DNA from: Candidatus Saccharimonadia bacterium
Lineage (GTDB): Bacteria; Patescibacteriota; Saccharimonadia; UBA4664
DNA: 59,835 nucleotides
NCBI GenBank assembly: GCA_038244585.1
Contig: JBBRTI010000003.1
Span: 1 to 59,835 of the forward strand
Reading direction: 5' to 3'
Within the stretch, counting starts at the first letter, position 1. Each line of letters opens with the position of its first letter. This document shows, in pieces, positions 2,420 to 23,025 of the stretch. The notes beneath the pieces are model-generated. The model was given only the letters and a program-made list of their open reading frames with translations. It was not told the origin of the DNA and ran no database searches. The translations under genes and the position numbers were made by a program.

Positions 2420-5400
2420 CTACTGGGCCCAGAAGTAGTTCTGCTCTTTGCCGGTTTTGGGATCGAACCAAGCGCCGTGACGCAACAGCAAATCAGTTGT
2501 CGGCGCATAGATAAAGGCGTTGGTCTGGAATGTGGGTGCTGACGCGCTGGCCGCTTGGCTCACTCGGAAGTACATCCAGTAGGCGCCGGCGCCATCGGAG
2601 TCATAATATTCGCTCAATCCGTTGGCCGGTTGCCCGCTGATACGGCAGCCAGAGTTAGCCAAACAATCGGTATTGGTACTGATGGTTTCCCACGATGAAG
2701 TGGTGAGGTGGAACACCTCCAGCTTGATATTAGCCGTGGCGGCGCTAACCGTTGATCCGCCGGTCCACTGCACGTTGGCCGGCGTCGTGTTGTCAGTCTG
2801 CTTAATGTTAAACAAATAGTAAGGCTGCTCGTTGGCATTGCCGTAAAGCGTATCGTAGAAGCCATCGTTACTTTGGACGCCGCAGTAACCCATATCGTTA
2901 GCCACCGAGCTACAGTCGGCCGTGGAGTTGCGCGGAGCCAGGCCAAAGTCTAGGTGATATCTAGCGGCGTTGATGCGAGCATTACGCGGTCCGGCCGGAG
3001 TGGTTTCAATAGCGCTGGGTTTTACCGAAGGAATCTTGAGTTTAGCAATTTTTAAATCCAGGTTACTGGCGTCATAATAACTAACCCATGGCATACCGGA
3101 ATAATCAAAGGCGATGGTAGTATATTGGCCTACCGTACCACCTGTATTGATGCTGCCGCAGTTCCAAGCGGTGGAAGTACAGTTACCGCCGCTGGTCACA
3201 AAATGGGCCACCCGCAAGTCGCCTGCACTGGAGTCGTAGTAGCTGATCCACGGGTTGCCGGTGGCATCAAAGGCAATCGACGAATATTGCCCGTCGGAGG
3301 CCGAGTTATCAACCTGCGTACACTGCCAAGCCGCGCTCAAGCTGCAGTTGCCGCCCGTTCCAACGTATTTGGCTACGTCCAGAGCAGTGTTGGTGCCGTC
3401 GTAATAGGTAATCCAAGGCTTGCCATTGGTATCCATACTCATGGAGGTTGACGACGCGCCGGCCGCGTCCACCGAGGTACATTGCCACAAGCTGGAGGTA
3501 CAGCCGCTACCGCCTGCACCCACATATTGAGCTACGCGCAGTTGACCGTTTGCGCTGTCATAATAACTGATCCAGGGCGTACCGCTACTATCAAAACTCA
3601 GGTTAGAAAATTGGCCGGCGGTGACCGTGGCATCAACCGTGGTACAGGTCCAGGCAGTAGAGAGCCCGCAACCAGTGCCGTTGAGGCCAACGTACTGGGC
3701 CATTCGCAACCGGAAGTTGGTGTTATCATAATAGGCTATCCACGGTACATCAGATTTACTGAAGGCAATTGACGTGTATTGTCCTGTCGAACCATTATCG
3801 ATGGCAGAACAGTTCCACAGTGCCGTACCGCCCGTGCTCAAGCAGGAACCACTGGCCGATACTTCTTGCGCCACACGCAACGTTCCCGCCGTGTTATCAC
3901 GGAATGCCACCCACGGGGTGCCATCGCCCGCGAAGGCCAAGGAGCTATGCTGGCCCTTGGTATTGGTAGTTTCCATAGCTGCACACGTCCACTGGGTATT
4001 GGCACAACCTGTGCCTCCGCTGCCCGAATATTTCGCATATCTGAGTGCCGAGTTTGTTGAATCGTAATAGCTAAGCCACGGTCGGCCGGCCGGGTCAAAG
4101 GCAAAACTGTTATAGGTACCGACGCTATTAGTACTTTGGATAGCCTCACAGCCCCAAGTCGCATCGCCGTCGCAGGTAGGAAAACTAGGGTTGGTGTCTT
4201 TTGAAAACCGTAGGTTGGGAGACGCGTCCATTGTGAGAGTAGGATAAGCTGCCACCGTCGTTGGCCCCCGCCACACACCCTTATCATTGCGGTCTGAGGT
4301 CGATGAAGCCAACATGAACCGATAGGTGGCTCCCGCCGTAGCCTGAGTAGTATCCAGCGTAAATGCCACTTCAGTACACTGCCCGACCAGGTTGCCGGCC
4401 GGCAAAATAGAAGTAGTGCCGGTGGTGGAGTTGGTCTGCGCCTGTGACCCGGTACCCCAGACCCCGTTGGTCCATTGCGCGCCGGCCGTGAGACAGTCGG
4501 CGTCGTTTTGGTTAGTGGTATCATTGACGGCCGTCATATCCGCCTGGGACTTAGTGATACCGGCCGGGCTGACACCCGCGATTCCCGCGGCCGGCAGGAT
4601 TTCCCCGCCGCCAGTGACCTGCGCTGTCCTGAGGGATGTGTTAGTGGGGTCATAATAAGCCGCCCACAAGTTCCCGTCAGGTGCTGTCGCCACACTGGTA
4701 AACTGGCCAGTGCTGGTGCCAGTGTTATCCACCGCGCTACAGTTCCAGGCCGCGCTAGTACAGTTACCTCCTGAGCCAACCAGGCGCGCAATCCTTAATG
4801 AAGTATTGGTTGTGTCGGTGTATGACACCGCAATCTGACCGGAGGCATCCGCCGCAAGCGAAGTGTACCGACCAGTATCAGTGCCGGTGTTGTCCACCTG
4901 CCCGCAGGTCCAGCCCGACCCCGTACAGGCAGTGCCGAAGCCACCACCGTTGGTCGCCACCCTCAGGGCACTGCTGGTAGCGTCATAATAACTAACCCAA
5001 GCATTACCTGTGGGGCCAAATAACAGACTGGGGTACGAGCCCGTATCAGTGCCGGTATTGTCCACAGAGGTGCAAGTGAACGCCACAGAACCGGTTGCGC
5101 CACAACCAGTGCCGTTGGAACCGCCGACGAAGTTAGCGACATTCAGCTCCGTAGAGGCTTTGTCGTAATAGGCAATCCACGGCTTGCCGGCATGGTCAAA
5201 GGCGATACTGGAATAATCAATGCCGGTCGCATTACCTTCATCGAGCACGGCGCAGTTAAAGGTAGCCGTTGCGCCACATCCGGTACCACCGGAAGCCACA
5301 TAGGTGGCATATTTATTGCCTTTGAGGGTACCGTTATCATATGAATACGACACCCAGGCGTTACCGGTCTGGTCAAAAGCAATTGAGCTGAACGAGCCGG

Positions 5401-20785: not shown

Positions 20786-21085
20786 TTAGGCGATCTTGGT
20801 TATCTTAACCTGAGTGTACTTCTGACGGTGGCCGGTGAGGCGCTTAACGCGCTTCTTAGCCTTGAATTTCATGATCTTGAGCTTGTCACCCTTAACCTCA
20901 TCAATCAGTTCGGCATGAACCTTGATCTTATCGACCAACGGCGTGCCGATGCTGACGTTGCTACCCTCGAAGGTCATGAGGGCGTCGAACTCAAACTTCT
21001 TGACATCGCCTAAAAGTTCCAGATCAACGATATCTCCTGCCTTAACTATGTACTGCTTCCCGCCGGAAGCGATAACTGCTTGCAT
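20786..21085 (-). CDS. rplU: 50S ribosomal protein L21
   Basis: MQAVIASGGKQY.V..GD ... KR..GHRQ.YT.VKI. AAGGAG SD upstream. Confidence 0.97.
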   Translation of the reverse strand: MQAVIASGGKQYIVKAGDIVDLELLGDVKKFEFDALMTFEGSNVSIGTPLVDKIKVHAELIDEVKGDKLKIMKFKAKKRVKRLTGHRQKYTQVKITKIA

Positions 21086-21154
21086 GTAAGCTCCTTGTAA
21101 GCCTGGGTCTAGCAGGCGTGCTTGTTAGTTTGCGTAACCAAACGATAATAACAG

Positions 21155-21185
21155 AAAAACCCCCTCATGGCAACGCCTGGGGGTT
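21155..21185 (-). terminator. Terminator after the displaced rodA-like 3' end
   Basis: AACCCCC / GGGGGTT stem followed by TTTTT on the minus strand. Confidence 0.65.
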
Positions 21186-21192
21186 AGTTGCC

Positions 21193-21211
21193 GAACTGCA
21201 GCTTCTTGCGC
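21193..21211. repeat. 19-bp direct repeat, copy 1 (GAACTGCAGCTTCTTGCGC)
   Basis: Identical to 21910..21928. On the minus strand it encodes RKKLQF, followed by GN and a TAA stop. Confidence 0.9.
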
Positions 21212-21226
21212 TTGTTGCGATATTTG

Positions 21227-21877
21227 CTAATCGCGGATATTGCTCAGATAGCGTTTTATATCGTCCCGTCGCTGGGCGTATACGAATGGCGATGCAGCTT
21301 TGATGATGCGCGCCCAGCGCTCACCCACTGCCAACTCATCCCTCCAATGGCTCCGGGACATATTAAATTTGACGAACGCGTATGCTTCGGTAGCGACCAC
21401 ATCAGGCGGAAGGCTGCCAAACGTCAAGGTAGCACCACCGCCTTGTGCGAACGCCTTAATGGCGGTTCGCGGAAATCCCGATAGTTCGCCATGAAGCACT
21501 CCATCCTTCGGGTAGCCTTTAGGATCGGACCATAGTTTCTCCATGAGAAGTAAATTCTCCGGGTTAATCGCTAAACGATATACGATGCGCTCTACGAACG
21601 TTGGGGGAGCATCACTCACCTGGATTATCGCCGGTCCCAAAGGACTAAACAGGACGCCCAGTAAAGTTAGAAAGGTTTCCAGTTGTACAATTCTTAAGGA
21701 ATCGATTGGATTAACCAGCTGTTCGCTCCTACCACTCTCTGAAAACAGCTGCCATTCTACCCCCCGCTTCTCACCTGCCAAGAGCAGGATGAGGTCGAAT
21801 TTTTCATCGGTCAAGTACGAATCCGGTAAGAGCGGCCTATAGGCTTCGATAATATGGCCAGTGTCTTCAGATACCAT
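21227..21877 (-). CDS. Hypothetical protein (cargo between the direct repeats)
   Basis: 221-aa ORF in the track. The ATG at 21877 has an AAGGA SD. Contains HG.LSGFP.TA..AF and F..S..HW..E...W motifs. Function unknown. Confidence 0.75.
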   Translation of the reverse strand: MVSEDTGHIIEAYRPLLPDSYLTDEKFDLILLLAGEKRGVEWQLFSESGRSEQLVNPIDSLRIVQLETFLTLLGVLFSPLGPAIIQVSDAPPTFVERIVYRLAINPENLLLMEKLWSDPKGYPKDGVLHGELSGFPRTAIKAFAQGGGATLTFGSLPPDVVATEAYAFVKFNMSRSHWRDELAVGERWARIIKAASPFVYAQRRDDIKRYLSNIRD

Positions 21878-21900
21878 GTTACGTCCTTCCATATGTTTGA

Positions 21901-23025
21901 TTATCCTCTGAACTGCAGCTTCTTGCGCCGGATGGCAATACTTTCGAGCAAGCCGATGGCCAGCATGGCCACAATCAGCGAGGTACCGCCGTAGCTGACG
22001 AACGGCAACGGAATACCAGTAACGGGCGCAATCCCGATGTTCATGCCGACGTTTATAAAGAAATGGAACAGCAGCATGGAGACTACGCCGGTCGCGATGA
22101 ACATCCCGAACCGGTCCTGAGCGCGATTGGCTATTATCAGTCCGCGAATCATCAGGCCGCCGAACAGCAGCACCACCAGACCCGAACCGACAAAGCCCAT
22201 CTTCTCACTCAATACGGCAAAGATGAAGTCAGTGTGCTGGGCTAGGCTGGGCAGGAAGTTCAGTTGCGTCTGCGAGCCGGCCGCCAGTCCCCGACCAAAC
22301 AACTGGCCGCTCCCGACGGTGATGGTGGATTGTACTACGTTATAACCGGTATGGAGCGGGTCGGCGGCCGGGTCGAGGAACGTTACTAGGCGAGCCTTTT
22401 GGAACGGCTTAAGCAAAGCGTATCCGACAGGTGCCAGGGCAACAGCGGCGGCAACCAGCCCAATAAGATAAAACTTGCGAATGCGTGACACCAGCGTCAT
22501 CCCGAGCCAAATAACAATCAGAACCAGCGTTGAACCAAGATCCGGTTCCTTAAACGTTAATATGACCGGTAAGGCTAAATACGCCACCGAAATCAAAAAA
22601 AACTTCGGCCGCTCCAGCTGATCATAATTTTCGGCATACAGCTTCGCTAGGACGACAATGAGTGCCAATTTCATCAGCTCGCTGGGCTGGAATTGGAAGA
22701 ATCCCAGGTCTATCCAGCGTTTTGCGCCCAAGACGGGCCGCGCAAACATTTCCACCCCCACCAGCATCAAAATCGAGCCGCCGTAAAGCCAATTGACCAT
22801 CTTGCCCCACATGCGGTAGTCGACGCGGGACATCATTACCAACCCCACGAGCCCGATAATAGCGAAGATGCCTTGGTGCACCGCCTCGCTCGAGCTGACC
22901 AGCGACGTGGCTTTAAAGGATGTCGAATAGATGACGATAAGCCCGACGGTCGTCAGGAGAGCCATGATACCGAAGAGTACCCAGTCGAAATTTTTCCAGA
23001 AGCGGCTTTGAAGCACTAGGCCCAC
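21901..23025 (-). CDS. rodA: Rod shape-determining SEDS protein RodA
   Basis: GAKRWIDLG.FQFQPSELMK, EPDLGS, QS.I.VGSG..FGRG, HTDFIF..L.E..G, GIAPVTGIPLPFVSYGGTS. Confidence 0.9.
   Translation of the reverse strand: MGLVLQSRFWKNFDWVLFGIMALLTTVGLIVIYSTSFKATSLVSSSEAVHQGIFAIIGLVGLVMMSRVDYRMWGKMVNWLYGGSILMLVGVEMFARPVLGAKRWIDLGFFQFQPSELMKLALIVVLAKLYAENYDQLERPKFFLISVAYLALPVILTFKEPDLGSTLVLIVIWLGMTLVSRIRKFYLIGLVAAAVALAPVGYALLKPFQKARLVTFLDPAADPLHTGYNVVQSTITVGSGQLFGRGLAAGSQTQLNFLPSLAQHTDFIFAVLSEKMGFVGSGLVVLLFGGLMIRGLIIANRAQDRFGMFIATGVVSMLLFHFFINVGMNIGIAPVTGIPLPFVSYGGTSLIVAMLAIGLLESIAIRRKKLQFRG
21910..21928. repeat. 19-bp direct repeat, copy 2, inside the rodA 3' end
   Basis: Identical to 21193..21211. 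Confidence 0.9.

Follow-up and report, generated by a model that had tools for sequence, protein, structure and literature searches.

The stretch examined here is 59,835 nucleotides of a Candidatus Saccharimonadia bacterium genome (assembly GCA_038244585.1, contig JBBRTI010000003.1, positions 1 to 59,835; hereafter, the window). Between rodA and rplU it carries a single gene of an orphan family, flanked by a perfect 19-nt direct repeat. The window genome (G000) is a metagenome-assembled genome (MAG) of a member of the Saccharimonadia, 828 kb in 58 contigs and 94% complete. Its rodA, the intervening gene (referred to here as the cargo), and rplU all lie on the minus strand, with ileS as a further neighbor.

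Anatomy of the rodA-rplU locus

The rodA gene (21901..23025) encodes a 374-aa SEDS peptidoglycan polymerase (PF01098, 8e-99; TIGR02210, 373 bits, above the cut-off) that ends in ...RRKKLQFRG* (...ESIAIRRKKLQFRG*). An initial annotation of the window had reported a perfect repeat around the neighboring gene, and we found that the 19-mer GAACTGCAGCTTCTTGCGC is indeed present exactly twice, at 21193-21211 and 21910-21928, with a spacing of 717 bp. No further copy with up to two mismatches occurs in the window, and 0 of 100 shuffled sequences matched. Such an arrangement is rare in this genome: only 7 exact direct repeats of at least 16 nt at a spacing of 100 to 3,000 bp occur in its 828 kb, and just 1 of 356 other open reading frames (ORFs) of 150 to 300 aa is strictly flanked by a repeat of at least 15 nt. 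A possible extension of the repeat upstream of the 19-mer added only 4 score units, and we make no claim for it.

The proximal copy (21910..21928) forms the codons (R)RKKLQF of the active rodA, which then closes with AGA GGA TAA (RG*, 21901..21909). This new end is supplied by the insert; likeness to the distal copy and to the rodA genes of relatives stops exactly after the F codon. The unique inserted DNA (21212..21909, minus strand) comprises 698 bp of low GC content at third codon positions (GC3) and consists of the RG* end, the cargo, and a 15-nt tail, CAAATATCGCAACAA, that separates the cargo stop from the distal repeat copy; together with one repeat copy it makes up the 717-bp unit. The cargo ORF (21227..21892) encodes 221 aa, or 216 aa from its likelier start, M6 at 21877, which lies behind a GGAAGGA motif. 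It begins 8 nt after the rodA stop, or 23 nt if counted to this better-placed ATG, and because no terminator lies between the two genes the cargo very probably uses rodA transcription, as had been proposed at the outset.

Read in frame, the distal copy gives ...KRKKLQFGN* (21184-21213). Its repeat (21193-21211) and the following GGC AAC TAA (GN*, 21184-21192) form a 28-nt segment (21184..21211, minus strand) that we refer to as the relic. It is directly abutted by a hairpin, CCCCCAGGC-GTT-GCCATGAGGGGG, and a U-run (21155..21183), the putative ancestral rodA terminator; a simple terminator scan missed this hairpin because of its internal loop, but folding reveals it. Beyond it lie the rplU promoter and a conserved leader (21086..21154), with an extended -10 element, CTGTTATTAT, at 21145-21154 and a leader hairpin, GCCTGCTAGACCCAGGC, at 21101-21117. 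No Rfam family matched the leader or its hairpin. The conserved right-hand neighbor, rplU itself (20786..21085; PF00829, 7e-27), encodes ribosomal protein L21.

Two Logan contigs from run SRR19962014 match the window without a mismatch. One spans the rodA-cargo junction and the other spans the cargo, the relic, the terminator, and rplU; they overlap by 21 nt inside the cargo rather than at the repeat. As this independent assembly covers both junctions, the structure of the locus is not an artefact of the MAG assembly. Exact-protein look-ups returned occupied contigs only.

The distal repeat copy as the displaced end of rodA

The sole congener of G000 in our collection is G001 (MAG UBA5147). 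Its RodA is 89% identical and ends in ...KKLQFGS* (DNA ...TTCGGCAGCTAA). The relic, ...TTCGGCAACTAA, differs from this true rodA end at 1 nt in 12, whereas the active G000 end, ...TTCAGAGGATAA, differs from it at all six positions of the last two sense codons. In the region upstream of rplU, the two genomes show near-perfect homology, which resumes in the 3' half of the terminator hairpin. The initial annotation had taken the GN* end and its terminator for the original rodA terminus, with the reading frame restored by the insertion, and had expected empty sites in relatives to spell KKLQFGN* before a terminator. In all relatives with an empty rodA-rplU junction, RodA ends in FG[S/I/V/A/T]*. 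These comparisons strongly support a reading of the distal copy and its terminator as the ancestral rodA terminus, displaced by 717 bp through an insertion that restored the frame. The corresponding empty site is predicted to read ...ATTGCCATCCG-GCGCAAGAAGCTGCAGTTC-GGCAACTAACCCCCAGG....

The cargo is absent from G001 and its composition is atypical. Furthermore, the two repeat copies are identical at 19 of 19 positions, while identity between G000 and G001 over ileS-rodA is only about 78%, and the insertion is therefore much younger than the split between these two genomes.

The rodA-rplU junction as an insertion hotspot

Synteny from rodA to rplU holds across the order, and the distance between the two genes falls into two classes in the 25 loci compared: 40 to 121 nt in 8 loci, which are empty, and 551 to 1,962 nt in 17, which are occupied. 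The occupied gaps hold unrelated ORFs, with only three weak pairs in an all-against-all BLAST comparison and no Pfam match among the occupants tested. In every case, the variable DNA is confined to the interval from the rodA stop to the extended -10 of rplU, so that the promoter-leader region forms the right border of the slot across the family; at the empty sites of G018 and G009, CTGTTATTAT stands only 2 to 3 nt past the rodA stop. We found no duplication of the right flank (the rplU promoter) in the 17 occupied slots. The rodA-rplU junction is a compact insertion hotspot across a Saccharimonadia order.

In one further occupied slot, that of G010 (from another genus), a perfect 22-nt duplicate of the rodA tail including its stop (GAAGTTGCAGTTTGAGGGGTAA) lies 1,273 bp downstream, with two unrelated ORFs ahead of it and a third behind it, and a -10-like TGGTAT(T)AG follows each tail copy. 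The borders of this repeat differ from those in G000. Since G010 shows the same type of scar with an unrelated cargo, the scar is not unique to the G000 cargo. A back-translated RKKLQF pattern, which gave zero control hits at the family level (26 genomes), has a second copy in G000 only, and a looser pattern, with scattered control hits, revealed no other rodA-tail duplicates in 53 genomes of the order or 401 of the class.

Several candidates that came up in these scans were set aside. A diverged stretch fused to ORF B in G010 (...LLEPMAKRKLQH*) was suspected to be an older relic of the rodA tail, but 45 of 200 shuffles reached its score at the protein level, which makes it nonsignificant. An FEG ending looked at first like an insert-linked end; it also occurs in L127, where the gap is 160 nt, and is probably a clade trait. 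Double tail-pattern matches in G124 (both copies at contig ends) and G058 were unrelated. The latter is an 18-mer at the 3' end of a serine-recombinase ORF, tRNA-like by eye. In this G058 locus (L201, C7:40500-46465) the serine-recombinase-like ORF is 526 aa long and an identical 18-mer stands inverted 1.8 kb away; this could represent an element integrated at a tRNA gene, in a different family of Saccharimonadia.

Some features of the slot and its borders deserve mention in their own right. In empty-junction relatives (including L014 and L018), the rplU -35 element (TTGCAG) is made by the terminal Leu-Gln codons of rodA, and the leader hairpin GCCTGCTAGACCCAGGC is strongly conserved across the family. 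The RodA tail (..RRKKLQFEG) and the L21 N terminus (..GDVKKLEFDAL..; L041 6085-6381, G034 C22:13964-13981, and 20786-21085 of the window) are alike, in DNA as well as in protein (a 46-column gapped local alignment with a score of 40 in L041), probably by coincidence; this likeness produced false second tail-pattern matches. Among the slot occupants, a 526-aa protein of G001 (L036, 1355-2935) combines an N-terminal CxxC...CxxC zinc ribbon, a Pro/Ala-rich linker, and a transmembrane (TM) segment and has no Pfam match. Several others end in ...RQRGVV or ...AGVV (L011 of G013, 2676-3855; gene C of L038 in G010), and the slot of G013 holds two weakly similar tandem ORFs (BLAST E value, 5e-4), which hints at a second orphan family favoring this slot.

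The inserted gene belongs to a patchy orphan family

The cargo protein matched nothing in Pfam, NCBIfam, PHROGs, or PADLOC, including no toxin or immunity family, and we detected no nuclease or recombinase motif or fold in it. A word-indexed protein search returned the query itself only; an exhaustive HMMER search of public data found 241 representatives of 50%-identity clusters at an E value of ≤1e-3, the best homolog being 43% identical. Most homologs have 200 to 240 aa and share a conserved C-terminal core, with the motifs G..GFP.TAI.AF and S.(D/S)HW.(E/D)EL. AlphaFold2, given a 50-sequence alignment, predicted an alpha/beta structure with high confidence (predicted local distance difference test [pLDDT] score, 94.4; predicted template modeling [pTM] score, 0.91), for which Foldseek found nothing in PDB (best E value, 0.28) or BFVD (best E value, 0.07); a profile search of PDB sequences likewise found nothing. 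On the strength of this model and these searches, we consider the family a candidate new domain family.

With a GC3 of 53% (4th percentile), against a genome mean of 66% and 70% for rodA, the cargo is compositionally foreign. Its family is patchy, occurring in 25 of 401 Saccharimonadia genomes and nearly always in single copy. Retrieval of loci with cargo alignments yielded none, the family being too divergent. The neighbors of its members vary by genus and include PrmC, NAD kinase, a 6-phosphogluconolactonase-like protein, YkuD, cytidine deaminase, an HD protein, UvrD/PcrA, NhaA, and an MFS transporter; the cargo gene abuts or overlaps a co-oriented housekeeping gene upstream of it, at a distance of -32 to +23 nt from that gene's stop, in 9 of 17 loci. 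We entertained a functional link to cell wall enzymes (RodA and the L,D-transpeptidase Ldt, the neighbor in G002) and rejected it, as the other neighbors are too diverse (PrmC, NAD kinase, deaminase, HD, UvrD, NhaA, MFS). One copy appears to be decaying: in L213 (G076 C1:565989-569576), the gene is split by an in-frame TAA into parts of 88 and 108 aa.

Flanking duplications at other copies of the family

The initial annotation had suggested a search for cargo homologs flanked by repeats at other genes. When the same flank test was applied to 21 copies of the cargo family, 4 showed significant flanking duplications and 17 did not. Apart from the 19 nt at the rodA 3' end in G000, these are 91 perfect nt (or 106 nt at 94% identity) at the 3' end of an Ldt gene (ldt) in G002, 40 nt (33/40 identical) at a terminator located 5 nt beyond the stop codon of a convergently oriented NhaA gene in G191, and 38 nt (35/38 identical) covering the terminator of an MFS gene in L257. 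The lengths and the targets of these duplications differ, and there is therefore no fixed stagger and no common att site.

The G002 case allows the inserted piece to be followed on both sides. In relatives of this genome, ldt is followed by a promoter, P (...TGGTATAATTT...GGTAATGGA...), and then by a gene beginning with MD. In G002, by comparison, the order is a first ldt (A), ending in ...VHQ*; the cargo, which starts at tc-ATG; P1, a copy of the promoter with five codons of the gene behind it (MDTAP); a second ldt (B); a TM gene; P2, which is identical to P1 at 32 of 35 positions; and the gene beginning MDTSP. The second ldt is a 106-nt relic that ends in ...VHA*, its stop overlapping the next ATG. 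As read from this order of parts, G002 represents two alleles of one slot, ldt-cargo-P and ldt-TM-P, arranged in tandem with their inner flanks truncated. The incoming piece would therefore be chromosomal DNA of a relative, bounded on either side by host sequence, and an element with ends of its own is unlikely here because such an element would not carry P1. Either one homologous and one illegitimate join or one crossover of a circularized fragment would account for the integration. Polarizing the Q* and A* endings of Ldt by means of relatives proved uninformative, as this residue varies freely.

Origin of the insertion

The reading we favor, and hold to be reasonably probable, is that a gene was recently acquired by horizontal transfer into the variable rodA-rplU slot and that the locus is the scar of this event, made by host recombination after DNA uptake through homology-facilitated illegitimate recombination (HFIR). 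We prefer host recombination because of the analogy with G002 and because no mobility gene is present. The donor would be a related Saccharimonadia cell whose DNA carried rodA...KKLQF-RG*-cargo. The left side of this DNA would recombine by homology within rodA, and its right end would be joined illegitimately inside the recipient rodA, at a point 28 nt short of its stop; in a less likely variant, a circularized fragment would enter by one crossover on a short shared stretch. The outcome would be an active rodA with a donor-type RG* end and a promoterless cargo read through from rodA, with the recipient's last 28 nt (RKKLQFGN*), its terminator, and the rplU promoter surviving intact 717 bp downstream. 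The 19-nt repeat would then be the identical part of the two rodA tails, and the old hairpin would end a longer rodA-cargo transcript while leaving the rplU promoter untouched. That the surviving scars are gene-end duplications would follow from the scarcity of intergenic DNA, since a join within the re-supplied 3' end of the anchor gene would be among the rare ones that do no harm.

Several observations fit this scenario. ComEC and RecA are encoded in G000, and natural transformation with linear DNA, dependent on comEC, has been shown in other Saccharibacteria (PMC10633639). Hotspots that are free of mobile elements and turn over by recombination in flanking core genes are typical of transformable bacteria (PMC5635113), and HFIR has been proposed for an analogous displacement of 3' ends in type VI secretion system (T6SS) and Rhs loci (PMC5361080). 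Donor flanks are clear in G002 (the ldt tail, and P1 with its five codons); in G000, only the rodA tail is shared between the insert and the host flanks.

A number of points weigh against this reading. Neither a donor nor a relative with the cargo downstream of rodA was found in the genomes and metagenomes searched, and for this reason the anchoring step within rodA is one that we infer for G000; a metagenome scan with RodA gave a best match of 67% identity and no close relatives. The 15 nt to the right of the cargo contain no recognizable host flank. HFIR events in experiments usually delete recipient DNA rather than duplicate it, and a duplication thus needs either the safe-landing-zone argument given above or a circular intermediate. 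A recombination tract is not visible in rodA, where identity between G000 and G001 is uniform, although power is low at 22% divergence. In G002, the six mismatches between the two ldt copies cluster at both ends of the 91-nt perfect block, and simple allelic divergence is insufficient to explain this. Finally, scars occur in 4 of 21 cargo-family copies compared with 1 of 16 other occupied rodA-rplU slots (G010); the rate may point to a property peculiar to the cargo family, although the difference is not significant.

The initial annotation instead saw a minimal mobile islet that targets rodA. As we considered it, a 717-bp circle of the cargo and one core would integrate and excise at the rodA 3' end, driven either by a recombinase acting in trans (such as the single Xer-like enzyme, or an integrase of phage or plasmid origin) or by the direct repeats recombining with each other, with the element supplying the replacement end; its junction is predicted to read ...CGCAACAA-(19-mer)-AGAGGATAA... 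or, in a longer form, ...AATATCGCAACAA-GCGCAAGAAGCTGCAGTTC-AGAGGATAATCAAACAT.... The anatomy is indeed like that of attL and attR, in that a direct repeat identical at 19 of 19 positions flanks the insert, an element-supplied RG* end is in place, and the native end is displaced; other cargo-family copies are also flanked by target duplications, and the 826-bp unit of G002 would fit the one-crossover integration of a circularized fragment. We nevertheless consider such a cassette unlikely. As the initial annotation itself had noted, there is no integrase in the insert, whose single ORF has no recombinase domain, nor is one nearby: this 94% complete genome encodes a single, housekeeping-type Xer-like tyrosine recombinase (PF00589), on contig C1 rather than on the contig of the window, and no serine recombinase (PF00239). 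The ends of the insert carry no terminal inverted repeats, and the 19-nt core is not reused elsewhere in 26 genomes of the family, 53 of the order, or 401 of the class. Duplications that range from 19 to 106 nt at varied targets leave no common att site, and the G002 insert, which has donor-chromosome flanks on both sides including the neighboring promoter and gene start, leaves no defined element ends. In addition, 19 nt is below the usual minimum for an efficient RecA crossover. That an orphan protein could itself be the agent, or the privileged passenger, of an undescribed duplicative insertion mechanism acting at gene 3' ends and terminators with variable duplications strikes us as more doubtful still. 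It would explain why significant duplications occur at four unrelated targets in 4 of 21 family copies but in only 1 of 356 random G000 ORFs, and it accords with a family that is patchy (25/401), single-copy, placed in a different context in nearly every genus, given to abutting or overlapping the stop of a co-oriented housekeeping gene (9/17 loci), and endowed with a confident fold without a known match. Against it stand the same scar with unrelated cargo in G010, the 17 copies without duplication, and the lack of any detected nuclease or recombinase motif or fold; P1 in G002 is a donor host flank, which neither a cut-and-paste nor a target-primed mechanism predicts, and the proper control is other recently acquired genes, where the rate (1/16, G010) is not significantly lower. 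The broader notion that Patescibacteria harbor an undescribed, integrase-free mobile unit of a single gene, with this family as its passenger or agent, which would insert at gene 3' ends or terminators with duplications of 19 to 106 nt and live off housekeeping transcription, we likewise regard as improbable.

A local origin is very improbable. Here, the rodA end and its terminator would have been duplicated in tandem, by slippage or unequal crossing-over, with the gene gained later, or the relic would have been kept by selection. The rodA tail can be regulatory, given that the rplU -35 lies inside the rodA L-Q codons in empty-site relatives, and each tail copy in G010 is followed by the -10-like sequence. 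In G000, however, a 29-nt hairpin parts the relic from the -10, which puts the relic off promoter spacing and the predicted -35 in the hairpin. Moreover, two events rather than one would be needed, the break in composition falls exactly at the repeat boundary, and no gene-free tandem duplication of the tail was present in the 401 genomes scanned. As for a chimeric assembly of two strains joined at the repeat, its chance is close to negligible: the genome is a MAG in 58 contigs, but a 19-nt repeat is shorter than usual assembly k-mers, and the two independent Logan contigs cover both junctions at 0 mismatches and break inside the cargo.

Comparison with known systems

We compared the locus with several known routes of gene gain. 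Like an integron gene cassette, the insert is a single promoterless ORF expressed, as proposed here, from upstream transcription; unlike one, it has no attC (only 15 nt follow the cargo stop, with no inverted repeat between that stop and the repeat), no IntI, attI, or Pc, and no array, and its target is duplicated. Insertion sequences and transposons differ from it in that no inverted repeats and no transposase domain are present and in that the duplications, at 19, 38, 40, and 106 nt, are not of a fixed length. Integrase-mediated elements such as e14 and phage 21 at icd, and tRNA-targeting islands, replace the 3' end of a gene. In these elements as here, a direct repeat of the target 3' end flanks the insert and a substitute end keeps the gene intact, but the rodA insertion has no integrase or excisionase, consists of a single-gene 698-bp insert, and shares no att core with the other insertions.

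The locus is also close to HFIR, described in natural transformation of Acinetobacter, S. pneumoniae, and P. stutzeri (cited in PMC5361080 and PMC3240628). One homologous anchor, one illegitimate end, and no need for mobility genes are common to both, and the lineage is competent (PMC10633639); the difference is that the illegitimate join would here lie inside the anchor gene's own 3' end, giving a short duplication instead of the usual deletion. In the C-terminal displacement of Rhs, contact-dependent inhibition (CDI), and T6SS loci (PMC5361080 and references therein), an incoming 3' end likewise shifts the old end downstream as a relic. At rodA, by contrast, the replacement affects only two codons and a stop, no toxin-immunity content is present, and the relic is a noncoding 28 nt. 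The slot also resembles the mobile-element-free hotspots of Oliveira et al. (2017, PMC5635113) in holding unrelated genes in each lineage without integrase or transposase. It differs from them in its size (only 1 to 3 genes), in its setting in a 0.8-Mb genome of the candidate phyla radiation (CPR), and in its borders, which lie inside an essential gene's coding end on the left and at the -10 of a ribosomal protein promoter on the right. The kind of event is known, namely, gene gain at a hotspot, an HFIR-type scar, and C-terminal displacement. What is new is where it occurs, at the coding end of rodA in a CPR genome, and that it involves a wandering orphan family whose fold is unmatched.

Another repeat in the same genome may be mentioned. 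The longest short-range direct repeat in G000, of about 110 nt with a 48-nt perfect core (TTCGCTCGCCGAACCAGCCGGATCGATTCCGGAGAATCACCAACAGAA), lies on contig C21 at about 1565-1690 and 2443-2570; a terminator hairpin follows each copy, and between the copies lies one 128-aa ORF in the reverse orientation. The repeat may represent a leader or small RNA that was duplicated, or a further scar of a one-gene insertion.

Implications for gene gain in ultra-small genomes

The rodA-rplU locus provides a base-pair-resolved example of gene gain without mobile-element machinery in the ultra-small, gene-dense genomes of the CPR. A new gene has entered the coding end of an essential gene, whose displaced terminus remains as a datable scar. 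The analysis also flags a widespread orphan family that sits beside many different housekeeping genes and bears fresh scars of insertion in four cases. Should such scars prove common, they would serve as markers of recent transfers in CPR genomes, and the role of one-sided homology in gene gain would be open to experiment in transformable Saccharibacteria.

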